A stretch of 21,445 nucleotides of DNA from a virus (IMGVR_UViG_2698536428_000013:1-21445); one strand, 5' to 3'; shown: positions 1 to 13,874, numbered from the stretch's first letter. A program made the numbers and translations. The notes: generated by a model not told the origin, from the sequence alone.

Positions 1-1980
1 TTATGCTGATTCCCGGTTTTCGTTAACTTTGACTGTGACCGTATCAAGCAGTACCGGATACGTCGCTTTTGCCCCCGTGATATCTGTCAGCGTCAGCGTA
101 TCTGCTGTAAAGCCATCATTTGTCCACATCACAAGGTCAAACGCCGTCTGCTCTGTACCATCAATCACCGGAACGACTCTTTCGCTGTTATTTCCCGCAA
201 AGCGGAAAACAACCGTATGCCAGTTATGGTCAAACGCACCAAATGTACCCAGTTGTGCATTCGACGTGCCCTTGTGGTGCATAAGATTCAGATTTGATGC
301 ATCCGTCTGAAGGAAGAATGATGCCAGCATACTGTTTGCTGCCGCGCCTGACGCCCACTGCGACACCGGCCAGTAGAGACCAAAGACAAACTGTCCGTTC
401 ACCAGTTCGCTTCCATCCGGAATTTTGAACCGTACGGCAATTTCCCCCCCCTTGCTGAGAAAATTTTTTGCCTCCTCCACTGCAACAGTACGGAACATTT
501 TCCAGGACGTCAGTTTACCGGGCTGTTTTTCCAGTCGCAGCGCTTTCCGTCCACCGTCATCAGTCACAGTGCCTTTGCCGCCGGAAGCACCCCACTGCTG
601 CTCTGTCAATGCACCATTTCCACTGTTCGCATCATATTCAGCCACCGTCCTGGTACTGCTCACGGCCCCATCATGACCAGTACCAGCAACACCGCCATCC
701 TGCGGTTTCTCAACATCCGGTGTCCCCGGACTGACAGGAGTTGTACCACCCGACTGCGGTGCGCTCTGCCCGGTAAGGAACGATAATGTCCGCCCGGCGT
801 ACTGCAAAATGGCACCTGCCAGGCGGTCTGAAACAAGGCCTCTTCGCGCCCATGAACTGAAGTGCGTTTTACGATCGGCTGCCGTCCAGTTACTGGCAGT
901 GCGTGAGGCAGCGCCATAGTATCCCGCCGGGATAATGTCCGGATCTTCTGACGGCTCGTTTGTCGGCACATTCACACCATGCTCATCCGTCATCAACGGC
1001 ACAAAGTGAATATTCTGCGCAACTTTGCCTTTATACCCACCGTAAACCGCCTCATACGGCGCTGCATACCTTTCCTTCCAGTAGTACGTGGTATCACCGC
1101 AAATCCACGGGACGCTGGCCGTTGTCCCGCCAGTACACTGCTCTGCCACATCTGCCAGTTCCGTACGGAACTGATTTACCATGGCAAGGAAAAGCGCATT
1201 GTGTTCTGCATGTCTCCCCGAACTGACATCTTTTTCCCCCTGCATCCAGATCACCGACAACAGCACGTTTTTCGGATTTTTCTTCAGGGCTGCACGCGTT
1301 CTGCTGACCAGGTCACGATACAACGGTTTATCCACCCCCCACAGGGAAGATCCCGCTGTCGCACCCGACGCCTCATTAAACGCGCCCTCTGCTCCCGCAG
1401 TAAATCCCGAATCGCCACGTCCACACGGGACAAGAAGGATCCCCGCACGGGCAGGCATAAACGGCAGCAGTTTTTTGGCCACATGCAGGGCATGCCCCAC
1501 ACAGCCATACTGCCCTTTATTGAGGTCTGCTTTCGGGTGATTCAGATTACTCACGTCCTGCACATCATGCAGACAATGGTCTGCAGGAATAATGTCGTTA
1601 TATGCACAGGCCGCACCGCCCGGTGTCACCGTGCTGCGACGCGCCAGTTGCTTAATACGCGGGTCAGGACGATCATACGTATCCGGCAGCGGCAGCCCCT
1701 CGCCAAAAGACATCGAGTTGGACTGCCCGGCCAGCGCAATGACAAAGTAATATTCCGGTTCGCTGGTGGTGCTGATAACAGCGCCACCATCACCCGACGG
1801 TTGCACCACCACCGGTGTGGTGACATCACCTTCCGCCGCAATGGCCTGCATCAGGGTATAGGGCGTGATGGCCACCGGACTGCCAAATGGCTGCCACCCC
1901 TCCTTCAGTTTTTGAGTCAGTCGCTCCGCAAGGTCTGACGGCGACGCCGCCCTGACCACGTCATAGTGTTTAAATGTCAT
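1..1980 (-). CDS. NanS-p-like sialate O-acetylesterase (DUF1737-like N-terminus plus SGNH/SASA esterase domain), 659 aa
   Basis: Complete ORF with TAA stop at bases 1-3. SD GGGAGG lies 5 nt upstream of the ATG at 1980. GQSN motif (ALAGQSNSMSFGEG) is typical of SGNH hydrolases. The N-terminus (MTFKHYDVVRAASPSDLAERLTQKLKEGWQPFG) resembles the N-terminus of NanS-p esterases of lambdoid/Stx prophages. It sits late, downstream of Q. Confidence 0.6.
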   Translation of the reverse strand: MTFKHYDVVRAASPSDLAERLTQKLKEGWQPFGSPVAITPYTLMQAIAAEGDVTTPVVVQPSGDGGAVISTTSEPEYYFVIALAGQSNSMSFGEGLPLPDTYDRPDPRIKQLARRSTVTPGGAACAYNDIIPADHCLHDVQDVSNLNHPKADLNKGQYGCVGHALHVAKKLLPFMPARAGILLVPCGRGDSGFTAGAEGAFNEASGATAGSSLWGVDKPLYRDLVSRTRAALKKNPKNVLLSVIWMQGEKDVSSGRHAEHNALFLAMVNQFRTELADVAEQCTGGTTASVPWICGDTTYYWKERYAAPYEAVYGGYKGKVAQNIHFVPLMTDEHGVNVPTNEPSEDPDIIPAGYYGAASRTASNWTAADRKTHFSSWARRGLVSDRLAGAILQYAGRTLSFLTGQSAPQSGGTTPVSPGTPDVEKPQDGGVAGTGHDGAVSSTRTVAEYDANSGNGALTEQQWGASGGKGTVTDDGGRKALRLEKQPGKLTSWKMFRTVAVEEAKNFLSKGGEIAVRFKIPDGSELVNGQFVFGLYWPVSQWASGAAANSMLASFFLQTDASNLNLMHHKGTSNAQLGTFGAFDHNWHTVVFRFAGNNSERVVPVIDGTEQTAFDLVMWTNDGFTADTLTLTDITGAKATYPVLLDTVTVKVNENRESA

Positions 1981-2174
1981 GAATCCTCCCGGTCGGGATA
2001 ATGTTGTGAGTCAGATGAGGGAACGGGCTGAAGTCCGGAAGTTACAGGACAATGGCAGGAGGAAGACTACAGCCCGCAATACGAAAAAGGCCGCGCTATT
2101 GCGCAGAGTGATTACTGTCGGATATTATTCGCCAGCTGAAATATTACTTCACGTTTTGTTGTTTATTCCTTGCC

Positions 2175-2203
2175 GCCCGCGTCTCCCAGCGCGGGCTTTT
2201 TTT
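2175..2203 (+). terminator. Intrinsic-terminator-like hairpin (GCCCGCG / CGCGGGC, 8-nt loop) followed by T7
   Basis: A 7-bp GC-rich stem at 2175-2181 and 2190-2196, then TTTTTTT at 2197-2203, seen directly in the sequence. Confidence 0.4.
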
Positions 2204-2204
2204 G

Positions 2205-2233
2205 TCCATAAGAAAGCCCCTCCGGAGAGGGGC
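2205..2233 (-). terminator. Intrinsic terminator (GCCCCTC-CGGA-GAGGGGC hairpin, U-rich tail on the minus strand)
   Basis: A 7-bp perfect stem at 2216-2222 and 2227-2233 with a tetraloop. On the minus strand it is followed by TTTCTTATGG. It lies downstream of the TerB-like gene and small ORF. Confidence 0.45.
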
Positions 2234-2474
2234 TGGAGAGTGGCGCTATGTGCCATTGCATGGTGCCGGGTGCCTCCCGGTGAGTTCAGTATCAGCACCT
2301 GAACCCGCACAGAAAGGATAAGGGTCGGTGACAAAACACCAGTTGCTGATTGCCCCTCCGCACAGGGGGATTCACCATGCCAGTTTCTTTTAACAAACTC
2401 CCCGCAAACCAGACAACAGTCAACCGCCTGAATTGTGAGGTATTTAAAAATTTCAACGGGTAACTGATACCCTG

Positions 2475-2627
2475 CTAATCGCCTGATGCTTTCTTTTTCA
2501 GCAACGGGGAAGCAACAACCACCACACCCGCCACCAGCACACCGTCAGCCAGCACTGACATTATCCGGCTGCTGAAGTCCACCATCACCACCAGAAACAG
2601 CAGGAGCGCAACCACAGCCAGACGCAT
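2475..2627 (-). CDS. Small hydrophobic membrane peptide, 50 aa (MRLAVVALLLFLVVMVDFSSRIMSVLADGVLVAGVVVVASPLLKKKASGD)
   Basis: Hand translation of the minus strand. The ATG lies 8 nt downstream of the TerB-like stop, so translational coupling is possible. Two hydrophobic stretches and a KKK C-terminal tail. Absent from the ORF track, presumably because it is under 60 aa. No strong SD. Confidence 0.35.
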   Translation of the reverse strand: MRLAVVALLLFLVVMVDFSSRIMSVLADGVLVAGVVVVASPLLKKKASGD

Positions 2628-2635
2628 TTTTACCG

Positions 2636-3067
2636 TCACAGATGATTCTCCAGACGAAGGCCCAGAACACCGGCAATCTCTTCCAGCACCTTGCGCTCTT
2701 CCGGCTCTATTTCGCCGTCTGCTTCGGCAACGGCCACCGCCACATCCAGCACGTCTTCCGCTTCACGCGTATCGTGTTTCACATCCTCGATCTCACGTAA
2801 CGCCGCTCGACGACCAATTTTAAAGTTCGTATCCAGCTGACCGATAATGGTTGCGCTAATCGCATTAATTTCTGACGTAAACGCGGACAACGCAGGCTGG
2901 TTACGCAAGACCTGCTCGATCTTCGCTTTCTCTGAAGCCTCACATTCACCATCTGCATAGGCCACCAGATAGGCTGCATTAATAACCGCCTGTGCCAGAT
3001 CACGTTTCTCAAACTTTTTAATTTCCACTGCCGCTCGGCGGGCTTTTTTACCAAAAATACCAAACAT
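2636..3067 (-). CDS. TerB-like domain protein (tellurite-resistance TerB family), about 143 aa
   Basis: Start chosen at the internal ATG (MFGIFGKK...) with SD AAGGA about 8 nt upstream. Two ADG-containing acidic motifs (YLVAYADGECEASEKAKIEQVL and VAVAEADGEIEPEERKVLEEIAGVLGL) resemble the repeated motifs of TerB. It is the first gene after Q and the tR'-like terminator. Confidence 0.55.
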   Translation of the reverse strand: MFGIFGKKARRAAVEIKKFEKRDLAQAVINAAYLVAYADGECEASEKAKIEQVLRNQPALSAFTSEINAISATIIGQLDTNFKIGRRAALREIEDVKHDTREAEDVLDVAVAVAEADGEIEPEERKVLEEIAGVLGLRLENHL

Positions 3068-3197: not shown

Positions 3198-3223
3198 ACA
3201 AAAAAAGCCCGCCGAAGCGAGCC
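3198..3223 (-). terminator. tR'-like intrinsic terminator (GCUCGC-UUCG-GCGGGC hairpin plus U7-8)
   Basis: On the minus strand GCTCGCTTCGGCGGGC forms a 6-bp stem (one G-U) with a UUCG tetraloop, followed by TTTTTTTT. It lies about 180 nt downstream of the Q stop. Confidence 0.6.
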
Positions 3224-3235
3224 TGATAATAAATC

Positions 3236-3310
3236 TGGAGCGGGTAGCGGGAATCGAACCACGATAAGAAGGTTAACAGCCTTCCGTAATGACCTTTATA
3301 CGACTGACCC
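3236..3310 (-). other. tRNA-sized, tRNA-like element (probable degenerate or chimeric tRNA; not a confident functional tRNA)
   Basis: Minus-strand 75-nt segment GGGTCAG..CTCCA with U8, A14, G18G19, A21, a 5-bp anticodon stem GAAGG/CCTTC with loop CTGTTAA (U33, GTT, A37) and T-loop GGTTCGATTCC. The acceptor stem and T-stem do not pair. Confidence 0.3.
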
Positions 3311-3349
3311 AAATAAAAAAAGCCACCGTTGCAACTTAAGAGTCACTAA

Positions 3350-3400
3350 CGGCAGCATATGCCAATAGTGTTGCTCATTTGCTCAATGATGTCAACACGT
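3350..3400 (-). promoter_or_regulatory. Putative late promoter PR' / qut region downstream of Q
   Basis: TTGACA on the minus strand (plus coordinates 3390-3395) immediately after the Q stop. The -10 element is not clearly identifiable. Placement is by analogy to lambda PR'. Confidence 0.3.
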
Positions 3401-3401
3401 C

Positions 3402-3890
3402 CTATGCTACATGTTTAATTTTCTCTACACGTTTCCGGTTTTTAAACGCACTATCCAGAACCGGGTAAATCATAAACAACGAGGCATTAAGGATTTCGTC
3501 AACTTCCCGTCGACAGGTTGCGAGCGATGGTTTTTGAATGCGCCCGCCGCCCCGGCATAACATCTTGCGAGGTCTTGCGACGCAATGATAGTAAGATGCA
3601 ATGGCGTGCCTGGAAGAACCATGAGCGTAGTAGCTGAGGAGGATGCCGAAGGCTTTCTTGTCAATGTACATGACGGAATCGACGACCTGAGAAATCAACA
3701 TTCCATCATCATCATTACACATTGGTCTTGTCATAACTCTTCCCGGCTCTACGCTCTCCATGAACTTCGCTATTACGCTGCTCATGCGCTTTTCCAGACG
3801 ACCTGAATAAACCCATGCGCCCCACAGTTCAAGCCAGCCATTCAGCCAATCGTGCTGTTCTTTGGTGAGGTTTAGTTCTCTTATGCCCAT
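3402..3890 (-). CDS. Q: Late antiterminator Q (phage 21/82-type Q family, not lambda-type), 162 aa
   Basis: Position directly downstream of ninG. Conserved WGAW and CNDDD-type motifs (LELWGAWVYSG, PMCNDDDGMLI) as in the short Q antiterminator family. Confidence 0.65.
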   Translation of the reverse strand: MGIRELNLTKEQHDWLNGWLELWGAWVYSGRLEKRMSSVIAKFMESVEPGRVMTRPMCNDDDGMLISQVVDSVMYIDKKAFGILLSYYAHGSSRHAIASYYHCVARPRKMLCRGGGRIQKPSLATCRREVDEILNASLFMIYPVLDSAFKNRKRVEKIKHVA

Positions 3891-3933
3891 GCGACTTCTC
3901 CCTTGTTATCTGGAATGGTTTTTACTGAGAGCG

Positions 3934-4539
3934 TCATGCGGCCTCACTTCTGCTGTTTCGCAGGTCTTTGAGTTTCTGTTGGTACTCTGCCTTGATGGCC
4001 CTGCACTCTTCGACAGTCCAGCGATGGCGGTTATGGTTTGATTCGATTTCATCTACTGCTTCCTGCCCGATGCGGCTAATCAGTTCGACGCGATACGGAA
4101 CGAGATTTCCGCTTTTGTGCTGGTTGCACACCACGCATTGCTTGTGAATATTGCGTTCATCAAATCGGAGTTGAGGTGCCGCAGCAGTTGTCCGGTAATG
4201 TCCGGCATCCCACTGAGCAGACGTGAGCGTTCCGCACGAGATACATGGTAAGTCGCGGTCTCTTTCTCTGATGAAGGCGTTTACGGCTTGTTGGGCTTGT
4301 TTAATCCAGTAACTGCGGGGCTTTAAGGCGAGTTTTCGAATCTTCAGTTTATCTTTCTGTTTCTGCTCCTCTCGTCGTCGTTTATTCTCTGCTGCTTTTT
4401 CCGCTTTTTCGCGTTCTTTACTTCGTCGTTCGAGTGCTAATTGAGTTCCGTGTTCCGGGCAGCACCACCACTGATTTGAGAATGCCGGGTGAAACCATTC
4501 CTTGCATATTTTGCATTTCCTTCGCGCTGGTTTAGCCAT
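3934..4539 (-). CDS. ninG: NinG / Rap recombination endonuclease
   Basis: 201-aa product with Cys-rich N- and C-terminal motifs ([22 protein letters not shown]) matching recalled lambda NinG. TAATG overlap with the upstream gene. Confidence 0.85.
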
Positions 4540-5267
4540 TAAGCAGCCTCCCCTGTTACTTTCAGCATTCCGTTATCGAGCAGCTTTCTGGTCAGCCACT
4601 GTTGACCACGCCCGGTGATTTTTGTGGTGAACGATATCTGTATTCCGTGATTTGTGTTGACCGCTGTTTCTTTCACTGTGAAATAGCCGCGCTCCATATA
4701 TTCCTGCATTGGCACATTGCGCCGGGCACCTGAAGTAATAAGGATTTTGTGATCGCGCATCCACGCAAACAGTTTGTTTGGACCAATTCCAACAACCTTT
4801 GCATAGTTTCCAATCAAAATTCCGCTGGCCTCGCCAACGCGATCGGCAAACTCAACTTTAGGTGCTGCGAGAGCAAGCTGTTTCTCCAGTTCAGCCTTCT
4901 GGTCTTCAAGGTCGGCCGCAAGGCGCAATGCCTCAGAAAAGGTTTGTGGTATTTTCGCGGTTGCCCCTTCGAGTTCTCGCCAACGGTCAACAAGACGAGC
5001 GGTGAACTCTGGCGACAACTGAGCAACGACAATAATGCTGTCGCGCTTACCTTGTTCGCCCTCAAAAACGTAAGCATCTACGCCACGAAGTAATCCTAAG
5101 TTATTGATTTTTTCGAAAACCACCATTGGGGGATTTCGGATCACACCTCGAACCGCCAGTCGTTCAATGGATTGTTTCACCTTGTCATGACGACTTCCCA
5201 CCAACTCAGCGATTTCAATGCTTGTCATTTTGATGACGTTGCTATTTATCAGCTCGTTCATTGTCAT
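4539..5267 (-). CDS. Rha/Roi-family phage regulatory protein (antirepressor-like), about 240 aa
   Basis: N-terminal Rha-like motif ([23 protein letters not shown]) and nin-region position as for HK022 Roi. The start may be the second ATG (5261), which has better SD spacing. Confidence 0.55.
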
Positions 5268-5293
5268 GCCCTCTCATATTGAAAATTCAGCAA

Positions 5294-5319
5294 TAAAAAA
5301 CCCAGCCGAAGCTGGGTTT
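5294..5319 (-). terminator. Intrinsic terminator between the ORF6N-like gene and the Roi-like gene
   Basis: Minus strand ACCCAGC-TTCG-GCTGGGT hairpin followed by TTTTTTATT. Confidence 0.55.
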
Positions 5320-5335
5320 GTTAAGTTGTCAATTG

Positions 5336-6013
5336 TCAGTAGCGATGCAGTGAAGGCGGCAACTCTTTGCTCTTAAGCCTTACCCATGCGGAAAGATTCG
5401 TTGGTCCATCTGGCTCATTAATATCAACATCTCGTGTGTGATTGATTAAAACGTCTCTCGCCATTCCAATAACATACGAGAACTCATGACCGTAGTTGTA
5501 GCACCTGTCAGAATAGTTCGATTGAATTTGCTTTAGCGCCGGATACAGTTCGCGGAATAATGCCTGTGAACGGTTAGCATAATCCCATAGCCATACAAGG
5601 CTGTCTGTTTCTTTTGCGGAAAGCCCGTTGAGCTTCTTCTCTTGTTTGCCAGTATTTTTCTCGCCCTGGCTGAAATAGCAGTCTTCCAGTTTTTCGAACA
5701 CTTCCCACGCCTGATCGGTTTCGAGCATTTTTGCATGACGGGCTGCTCCGCGTTCTGTCCAGAGGATGAGGGAGCGGGCATTTTTACCAACTAACCCGAT
5801 TGTTTCGGGTCTGTTCTTAAACTCGCGTAATTCGTTTTTTTCAATTTTAAAGTAATGCTTTCCGGGCATGAATCGCGTCGTGTTGTTCAGAAAGTTATCA
5901 GAAATGTTTTTGATTTTTGTTCCGTAAAGGTGAGCCAACAGTTCAGTAGTAATTACGGGGATCTGGTTATAGGTAACAGGGGAAAGGTTTTCGACAGAAA
6001 TTTGAACAGCCAT
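5336..6013 (-). CDS. ORF6N/KilA-N-like domain phage protein (antirepressor-like), 225 aa
   Basis: SD GAGG 5 nt upstream of the ATG. The N-terminal segment ([23 protein letters not shown]...[15 protein letters not shown]) resembles ORF6N/Rha-type domains. Assignment is by motif memory only. Confidence 0.45.
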
Positions 6014-6176
6014 AATGACCTCGCGTTTCGATAATTTTTACCTCGCCACCGTCAGGTGCTAATCATCGTGGTGGCGAACTGTGCGGGGTTAGCACTACCG
6101 GTCGAAACATCCGGCGAGCCTTTCGGCTCCCCCACACAGCCCGCCATAAATCGCGAATGTGACTGTGCTTAGCGCA

Positions 6177-6198
6177 TAAAAAAACCGCCAGCGCGGTT
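6177..6198 (-). terminator. Intrinsic terminator downstream of ninE
   Basis: Minus strand AACCGC-GCUG-GCGGUU hairpin followed by a T6-7 run. Confidence 0.5.
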
Positions 6199-6288
6199 AT
6201 GCACCGTTTCGATATCCGGGGTGCTAATCCCGACGCCAGATTTTGCTGGCGCGTGAGGAATATAGCCCCGAATAAATCATCGCGTCAA

Positions 6289-13668: not shown

Positions 13669-13733
13669 TATGCATACCAATAACGCTTCACTAGAGGCGT
13701 TTTCGTTATGTGTAAATAAATAAGGAGCACACC

Positions 13734-13874
13734 ATGCAATATGCCATTGCAGGGTGGCCTGTTGCTGGCTGCCCTTCCGAATCTTTACTTGAACGAATCA
13801 CCCGTAAATTACGTGACGGATGGAAACGCCTTATCGACATACTTAATCAGCCAGGAGTTCCCAAAAATGGATAA
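13734..13874 (+). CDS. cIII: cIII (FtsH/HflB inhibitor), 46 aa
   Basis: MQYAIAGWPVAGCPSESLLERITRKLRDGWKRLIDILNQPGVPKNG matches recalled lambda cIII, shorter at the C-terminus. SD AAGGAG upstream. Confidence 0.85.
   Translation: MQYAIAGWPVAGCPSESLLERITRKLRDGWKRLIDILNQPGVPKNG

Follow-up and report, generated by a model that had tools for sequence, protein, structure and literature searches.

The 21,445-nucleotide (nt) viral sequence IMGVR_UViG_2698536428_000013, which is referred to here over its full length as the window, carries at positions 2475 to 3067 two adjacent genes that correspond to the pair known as tciA and tciB, i.e., a stand-alone gene of the TerB family and, directly after it, a gene for a small hydrophobic protein of the DUF3927 family. 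The minus strand carries every relevant gene of the region, namely, the late antiterminator gene Q, tciA, tciB, the small RNA (sRNA) gene STnc100, and an esterase gene. The pair is located in a lambdoid prophage, in the late operon behind a Q of the phage-21 type, where it occupies the cassette position that is taken by the Shiga toxin (Stx) genes stx2AB in Stx phages.

The gene tciA (2636 to 3067, minus strand) starts with ATG at 3067, has its stop at 2636, and encodes a stand-alone TerB-family protein of 143 amino acids (aa). TciA matches the Pfam family TerB (PF05099) over residues 26 to 138 with 59.6 bits (cutoff, 24.4; E = 4.7e-16), PHROG 632 with an E value of 6e-69, and the solved TerB structure 2JXU over residues 15 to 137 (E = 4.4e-8; 36.8 bits with phmmer). 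The AlphaFold2 (AF2) model has an all-helical, TerB-like fold (predicted local distance difference test [pLDDT], 88.9), and a Foldseek search with this model gave the top rank to the same structures as the sequence search (2JXU TerB; E = 0.02). The hidden Markov model search, the match to 2JXU, and the fold bear out the proposal of the initial annotation that the 143-aa protein is TerB-like. TciA is soluble, acidic, and helical. Two conserved acidic DG..E motifs are a feature of the TerB family, and both are present in the protein. Among 21 homologues, E46 of the first motif (D39-G40..E46) is invariant and D39 and G40 are kept in at least 90%, while D117, G118, and E124 of the second motif (D117-G118..E124) are all invariant. 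Weak profile matches were also obtained to the TerB-like portions of two membrane proteins, DjlA (E = 6e-7) and DUF533 (E = 4e-5). The RefSeq label of the tciA counterpart is "tellurite resistance TerB family protein."

The product of tciB (2475 to 2639, minus strand) is a small hydrophobic DUF3927 protein of 54 aa, which matches Pfam DUF3927 (PF13064) over residues 5 to 51 with 66.9 bits (cutoff, 25; E = 1.6e-18) and PHROG 1470, "TciB-like," with an E value of 3e-24. Judged by these matches, which lie far past chance, the small open reading frame (ORF) is not a chance ORF; public records annotate it as "DUF3927 family protein" or tciB. The protein is almost entirely hydrophobic with two basic ends, and its C-terminal tail (...LLKKKASGD) takes the ORF to 2475. 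The initial annotation had recognized this ORF but had placed it 8 nt after the TerB gene with a length of 50 aa; the ORF itself stands, and a better start extends it into an overlap with tciA. The 50-aa form corresponds to an ATG at 2627, 8 nt past the tciA stop and without a Shine-Dalgarno sequence. The GTG at 2639 overlaps the tciA stop by 4 nt (GTGA) and has a GGAG 8 nt upstream; only with this start does the protein include the N-terminal M-x-x-K-x-R that is kept by TciB homologues, and the 54-aa form is also the one given by RefSeq. For these reasons the GTG is preferred, and TciB most likely starts at 2639 and comprises 54 rather than 50 aa. Since its start overlaps the stop of tciA, the two genes are probably translationally coupled.

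An alignment of TciB homologues revealed R6, D21, F22, S28, L30, D32, G33, and P45 as invariant, and the two conserved aspartates, D21 and D32, sit inside the hydrophobic stretch. Residue 44, which is a near-invariant Trp directly before P45, is Ser in the window and Phe in Escherichia phage JLK-2012 and some other Escherichia coli copies. The ratio of nonsynonymous to synonymous substitution rates (dN/dS) against homologues ranges from 0.01 to 0.05 for tciA and from 0.19 to 0.44 for tciB; by this measure, both genes are under purifying selection. Conservation of the small ORF across phages, a point on which the initial annotation had made its proposal depend, is confirmed.

The control region upstream of the pair is that of a late operon of the phage 21 type. 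The antiterminator gene Q (3402 to 3890, minus strand; Pfam Phage_antitermQ, PF06530, E = 1.5e-24) is of the phage-21 type, and the Q region shows about 97% nucleotide identity to phage 21 and SfI. The late promoter PR' (3360 to 3395, minus strand), the coordinates of which were transferred from the alignment with phage 21, comprises a -35 hexamer TTGACA at 3395 to 3390, a -10 region at about 3372 to 3367, and a transcription start at about 3360, with the Q-binding element ATTGAGCAAATGAGCA at 3387 to 3372. It is followed by the intrinsic terminator tR' (3311 to 3358, minus strand), which aligns to the phage 21 terminator and consists of a hairpin that folds and a U7 run. Every base of PR', the Q-binding element, and tR' matches the annotated phage 21 elements in the alignment. 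A second intrinsic terminator (3198 to 3224, minus strand; stem at 3224 to 3205 plus U7), which was detected by a terminator scan and folding, sits between a tRNA remnant and tciA and is homologous to the "terminator upstream of the stx genes" of phage 933W. No minus-strand promoter was found between 3205 and 3067 in a consensus scan, which was a crude one. The undamaged set of PR', Q-binding element, and tR', the two terminators ahead of tciA, and the lack of a detected promoter for the pair itself lead us to infer that transcription of tciAB is restricted to Q-modified RNA polymerase reading through tR', i.e., to lytic growth.

The tRNA remnant between the two terminators (3241 to 3310, minus strand) scored 32.6 bits with the Rfam tRNA model (cutoff, 29), and ARAGORN called no tRNA at these positions. 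It is composed of the 5' two-thirds of a tRNA-Asn (GUU) and the 3' end of a tRNA-Gly, with the junction in the T-arm; alignment with the Asn-Thr-Gly cluster of JLK-2012 showed that the tRNA-Thr and most of the tRNA-Gly are deleted in the window. The marginal Rfam score and the rejection by ARAGORN are explained by this deletion chimera, and the chimeric tRNA is probably dead. A tRNA deletion identical to that of the window is present in E. coli PM4-5.

The deletion in the tRNA cluster could be taken as a sign that tciAB is degenerating and no longer serves a function in this prophage. The internal stop in the TerB gene of PM4-5, the many E. coli cryptic prophages that retain a truncated DUF3927 stub without TerB, and the Ser in place of the near-invariant Trp before P45 of TciB point in the same direction. 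However, both ORFs are intact in the window, their dN/dS values are well under 1, and there has been no loss of the Shine-Dalgarno sequence, the overlap, PR', the Q-binding element, or tR'. Decay without function is therefore regarded as highly improbable.

Downstream of tciB, a full-length STnc100 sRNA gene of 206 nt (2204 to 2409, minus strand) was identified with Rfam RF02076 (143.2 bits versus a cutoff of 47; model positions 1 to 206). It begins 66 nt past the tciB stop and has its own terminator hairpin at 2234 to 2215. The initial annotation had described two terminator hairpins after the small ORF, and both of them exist, but the first is the STnc100 terminator and the second faces the other strand. 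Since STnc100 is part of the same slot, it would be wrong to take the hairpin behind tciB for the terminator of the operon. The second one is a GC-rich hairpin at 2196 to 2175 with a T7 run (2175 to 2203, plus strand), oriented for plus-strand termination. Like this hairpin, a further terminator-like hairpin upstream of the esterase gene (2091 to 2106, minus strand) was found by terminator scan and folding. The esterase gene itself (1 to 1980, minus strand) encodes a NanS-p-like sialate O-acetylesterase of 659 aa with the Pfam domains DUF1737, SASA, and DUF6645. In Stx2 phages, STnc100 follows stx2 at a distance of 75 nt (PMC12370729); a link between STnc100 and the PasD sRNAs is drawn in a preprint from 2026. 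On the plus strand, a promoter-like site at 1974 to 2002 together with the strong terminator at 2175 to 2196 and its T7 run could give rise to a transcript of about 200 nt that diverges from the esterase gene; plus-strand positions 1974 to 2203 gave no Rfam match above threshold, and a small hypothetical ORF is annotated at the equivalent place in JLK-2012.

The arrangement can be compared directly with that of phage 933W, in which Q, PR', tR', tRNAs, a terminator, stx2A, stx2B, and an esterase gene follow each other and stx2AB lies at positions 963 to 2203 of the compared region. In BLAST comparisons, window positions 3261 to 3189 match 933W positions 847 to 920 with 83% identity, a segment that contains the 3' end of argO and the terminator upstream of stx2A. 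On the other side, window positions 2438 to 2257 match 933W positions 2249 to 2426 with 70% identity, beginning 46 nt past stxB2, and the esterase gene shows 72% nucleotide identity to the one downstream of stx2. Both flanks of the cassette are accordingly homologous to the stx2AB flanks of 933W, and the assignment to an stx-equivalent slot in the initial annotation holds at the nucleotide level. On the basis of these homologous flanks and of STnc100 at the matching place, tciAB and stx2AB are alternative cargoes of a single cassette site. Nucleotide-level evidence of this kind for cassette exchange bears on the question of how Stx phages gain or swap their toxin genes.

That this moron slot is otherwise occupied by stx would suit a protective role, in which TciAB, as a minimal ter-like module, shields the cell, once infected or induced, from superinfecting phages, from pore-forming colicins, and perhaps from tellurite. 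Such protection is implied by the P1 name "tci," and it would agree with the homology of TciA to TerB of the ter operon, the phenotypes of which include tellurite resistance and phage inhibition, and with the PHROG category "moron, auxiliary metabolic gene and host takeover." However, colicin resistance and cell division effects are known only from the homology label of P1, and with two terminators ahead and no promoter of its own, the pair would stay silent in the lysogen, which is the usual stage of action of exclusion genes. The ter phenotypes need TerC, TerD, and TerE, which are absent here: neither terC, terD, terE, nor terZ was found beside tciA, the neighbors of which are Q, the tRNA remnant, the DUF3927 gene, STnc100, and the esterase gene. 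Virulent phages carry the pair, too (see below). An exclusion or protection function is thus considered unlikely.

The pairing of a TerB-like protein with a tiny membrane peptide had been called unusual in the initial annotation, which was not borne out. The pair is already known, catalogued, and correctly annotated in public genomes: its members belong to PHROGs 632 and 1470, and their names, which are used in phage JLK-2012, were taken from the tciA-tciB-tciC operon of phage P1. The 593-nt segment from 2475 to 3067 is matched in 2,189 of 5,426 complete E. coli genomes, and at least 803 of the 5,426 contain a match that covers ≥80% of the segment, with up to eight places per genome. Many of the partial matches among the 2,189 genomes are due to truncated DUF3927 stubs. 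Such stubs of only 38 to 43 aa, without TerB, are found in many E. coli prophages (e.g., SCU-484, 2486 to 2617, and CREC-629, 2524 to 2640, in locus coordinates), where they follow a different Q type and a tRNA-Ile and have iraM downstream on the opposite strand.

For phages, TerB homologues from 127 phage records served as anchors, and the downstream DNA was then read for ORFs; this procedure replaced a tblastn search with TciB against phage records, which gave nothing, probably because of the low-complexity filter. A DUF3927-type ORF of 50 to 60 aa is present at -8 to +3 nt after the TerB gene in 11 of 14 diverse phage loci, i.e., in the window, JLK-2012, two P1 records, two Klebsiella lambdoids, an Erwinia jumbo phage, an Actinobacillus phage, the N4-like Salmonella phage SP-076, Pantoea phage Nafs113, and Pseudomonas phage Nican01. 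Not all of these 11 records annotate the small ORF. Bacterial loci with a TerB at least 42% identical, including those of Pantoea, Serratia, Pectobacterium, Oceanisphaera, and a Bilophila metagenome-assembled genome, gave a similar picture, with a DUF3927-type ORF of 50 to 79 aa at -8 to -1 nt in 14 of 15 cases, 13 of which fall between 50 and 57 aa. The adjacency was also observed on Salmonella contigs, and very common Klebsiella prophages contain Q, TerB, DUF3927, holin, holin, and endolysin genes in this order. In lambdoid, P1-like, N4-like, and jumbo phages, a DUF3927 gene directly after TerB is the usual arrangement, which is conserved among unrelated phage lineages. The pair adjoins tRNA genes in four phage types, namely, the lambdoids, P1, the Erwinia jumbo phage, and Pseudomonas phage Nican01. 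A mobile cassette of tRNA-Asn/Thr and tciAB shared by P1 and the lambdoids was considered and found unconvincing, as only the tRNA-Thr aligns (P1 versus JLK-2012, 77%).

DUF3927 is a small family, to which 162 clusters at 50% identity belong out of 1.84 billion representatives; at 90% identity, the number of clusters is 910. Its members are nearly all stand-alone proteins of 45 to 70 aa. No natural TerB-DUF3927 fusions were found among them, and the few long proteins (six) are frameshift or chimeric artifacts. In Pseudomonas phage Zuri (1943 to 2146 of the locus) and in Pseudomonas juntendi, the partner of TerB is an unrelated 67-aa protein with a single transmembrane (TM) segment and the motif ...YGxQTERxTK...PRNELR. 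This protein seems to have taken the place of the small membrane partner without being homologous to it, which fits a generic membrane-partner role.

The Klebsiella gene order bears on the suggestion of the initial annotation that the small ORF might be a membrane toxin-like or holin-like peptide. In an extended form of this idea, TciB would act as a holin, an antiholin, or a toxin, and TciA as the regulator or antidote that sets lysis timing. In lambdoid prophages (E. coli, Klebsiella, and Actinobacillus), the location of the pair with Q on one side and the holin genes on the other would be appropriate, and TciB is small and hydrophobic with a charged C terminus. Yet searches of TciB against Pfam, PHROGs, NCBIfam, and PADLOC returned only DUF3927 and PHROG 1470 and no holin or toxin family, complete holin/endolysin cassettes are already present in these phages, and the lysis genes are distant from the pair in P1, N4-like, and jumbo phages. 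The genes are, moreover, non-essential in P1. A role as a lysis pair is very unlikely in our view.

The explanation we favor, for which we put the chances at about even, is that tciAB represents a translationally coupled TerB module that is tied to the inner membrane, made during lytic growth, and acts on membrane or cation status. Transcription of tciAB would take place once Q-modified RNA polymerase passes tR' during lytic growth. TciB would be an integral inner membrane partner that recruits TciA to the membrane on its cytoplasmic side, and the two proteins would thereby divide between them what DjlA or DUF533/YebE unite in one membrane-anchored TerB-domain protein. The pair of intramembrane aspartates in TciB and the DG..E motifs of TciA would probably serve to handle a cation or to sense the state of the membrane. 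The most likely role would be to hold the membrane and ion status of the infected cell under phage control until lysis, as a non-essential accessory function. TerB has been described as membrane-associated or amphitropic in the literature, and TerB domains have been placed in the defense systems Bunzi, Shango, and Dionysus, for which the idea of "membrane surveillance" was put forward and no mechanism was given. An accessory nature is indicated by a P1 CRISPR interference screen, in which tciA, tciB, and tciC were non-essential (PMC10695390), and by the loss of the tci operon in about half of the P1-like plasmids of subgroup 1 (PMC9603915). The presence of the pair in virulent N4-like and jumbo phages suggests a role in infection rather than in lysogenic conversion.

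Several observations weigh against such a membrane-tethered module. AF2 models TciB as one continuous helix of 51 residues (residues 2 to 52; pLDDT, 90) and not as a hairpin, and TciB may accordingly be a hairpin or a single span. TerB homologues without a small partner occur in phages PMBT3 and BUCT194. TciA is about 90% identical to copies from Pantoea, Franconibacter, and Pseudescherichia, whereas TciB reaches only 45 to 59%; this out-of-step divergence argues against a tightly coevolving interface. The relation is reversed in Klebsiella phage 5 LV-2017 (TciA, 44%; TciB, 58%), and the divergence suggests recombination between tciA and tciB. In N4-like phages the pair is located among DNA metabolism genes, so the timing of expression is not conserved. 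Finally, no experimental function was found in the literature on tciA/tciB, DUF3927, and phage TerB domains, in which the label "tellurite/colicin/cell division" is based on homology.

The occurrence of TerB domains in validated defense systems that are thought to survey the membrane allows for another explanation, according to which a membrane-held phage TerB would act as an anti-defense decoy and disturb TerB-based immunity or stress systems of the host (phage inhibition by the ter operon, Shango, Bunzi, and Dionysus), e.g., through dominant-negative mixing or because it hides the membrane signal that those systems watch. As expected for an infection function, virulent N4-like and jumbo phages carry the pair as well as temperate ones; its distribution is patchy and accessory, with a location in a hypervariable region of P1-like plasmids, and a Tad2-like anti-Thoeris gene is found nearby in Salmonella phage-plasmids. 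In these P1/D6-like phage-plasmids, the Tad2-like gene (4881 to 5456 of the loci) follows tciA-tciB(-tciC) at a distance of about 700 nt, in the place of the tRNA-Ile and ban of P1. This neighborhood hint, however, comes from one context only, the papers found report no anti-defense activity, and PADLOC gave no significant match to a defense TerB (best E = 0.0021, candidate PDC-S48). A decoy function is accordingly rated as unlikely. Quite unlikely, in our estimate, is the broader proposal that TerB-DUF3927 is a widely shared phage countermeasure that silences inner membrane surveillance immunity (ter operon, Shango, Bunzi, and Dionysus) or abortive-infection triggers; if true, it would explain why four unrelated phage lineages share the pair and why lambdoid prophages have it in the stx slot. 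For the window alone the pair matters little, as the genes are catalogued and common. The conserved TerB-DUF3927 pairing is nevertheless a reasonable target for genetic study, as TerB domains appear in anti-phage defense systems.

Two further regions of the window were recorded in the course of the analysis. Positions 6067 to 6265 (minus strand) match the Rfam models for C4 antisense RNA (75 bits), its a1/b1 targets (51 bits), and IsrK (77 bits), and lie just upstream of the antirepressor genes at 5336 to 6013 and 4539 to 5267; judged by these matches, the region looks like an immI-like antirepressor control region of the P1/P22 type. The lambda cIII thermoregulator element at 13721 to 13779 (plus strand; Rfam, 88.5 bits) marks the start of cIII, and its strand implies that the early-left genes run in the direction opposite to that of the late genes.

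With respect to known systems, there is a likeness to the N-terminal region of DjlA, to DUF533/YebE, and to the TerB parts of Bunzi, Shango, and Dionysus, all of which have a TerB-like helical domain that works at the inner membrane. In the window, the membrane segment is a separate 54-aa product, and there is no J-domain, helicase, or pore-forming partner, in contrast to the membrane-anchored TerB proteins and defense systems; PADLOC gave no match to the Shango or Bunzi models, no helicase or ATPase partner was found, and the best hit remained the candidate PDC-S48. TerB of the terZABCDE operon (2JXU) shares the domain family, the fold, and the acidic DG..E motifs with TciA, but the gene of the window is stand-alone, is paired with DUF3927, and has low identity, and tellurite resistance is not implied. 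The P1 operon tciABC resembles the pair in organization: its TerB-family gene leads directly into a gene for a 54-aa DUF3927 protein, the stop and start codons overlap or abut, and tRNA genes are located nearby. Identities to the window are 41 to 52% for TciA and 44% for TciB, and the functional assignment in P1 rests on homology only. P1 differs by its third gene, tciC, which encodes a 36-aa single-TM protein, and by the location of the operon outside any Q-dependent late slot; no tciC-type ORF follows tciB in the window, where just 66 nt precede STnc100.

The closest complete genome is that of E. coli PM4-5, which is 99.7% identical over 2475 to 3067. Its TerB gene (3721 to 4152 of the locus) is flagged as a pseudogene with an internal stop, whereas the copy of the window is intact. 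Phage JLK-2012, a prophage of the O55:H7 strain DEC5E, has the same order of Q21-type Q, PR', tR', tRNA, terminator, tciA, tciB, STnc100 region, and esterase gene, with identities of 98.6% for TciA and 98% for TciB, and differs in that it has three intact tRNAs (Asn, Thr, and Gly) instead of a single chimeric remnant. The stx2AB cassette of 933W, finally, agrees with tciAB in its position, in the tRNA 3' end and terminator upstream, in the STnc100-like region and esterase gene downstream, and in an expression that is expected to need Q, although the Q proteins are of the phage-21 type in the window and of the 933W type in the Stx phage. A further difference lies in the cargo, which is an AB5 toxin in 933W and an unrelated pair of cytoplasmic or membrane phage proteins in the window.

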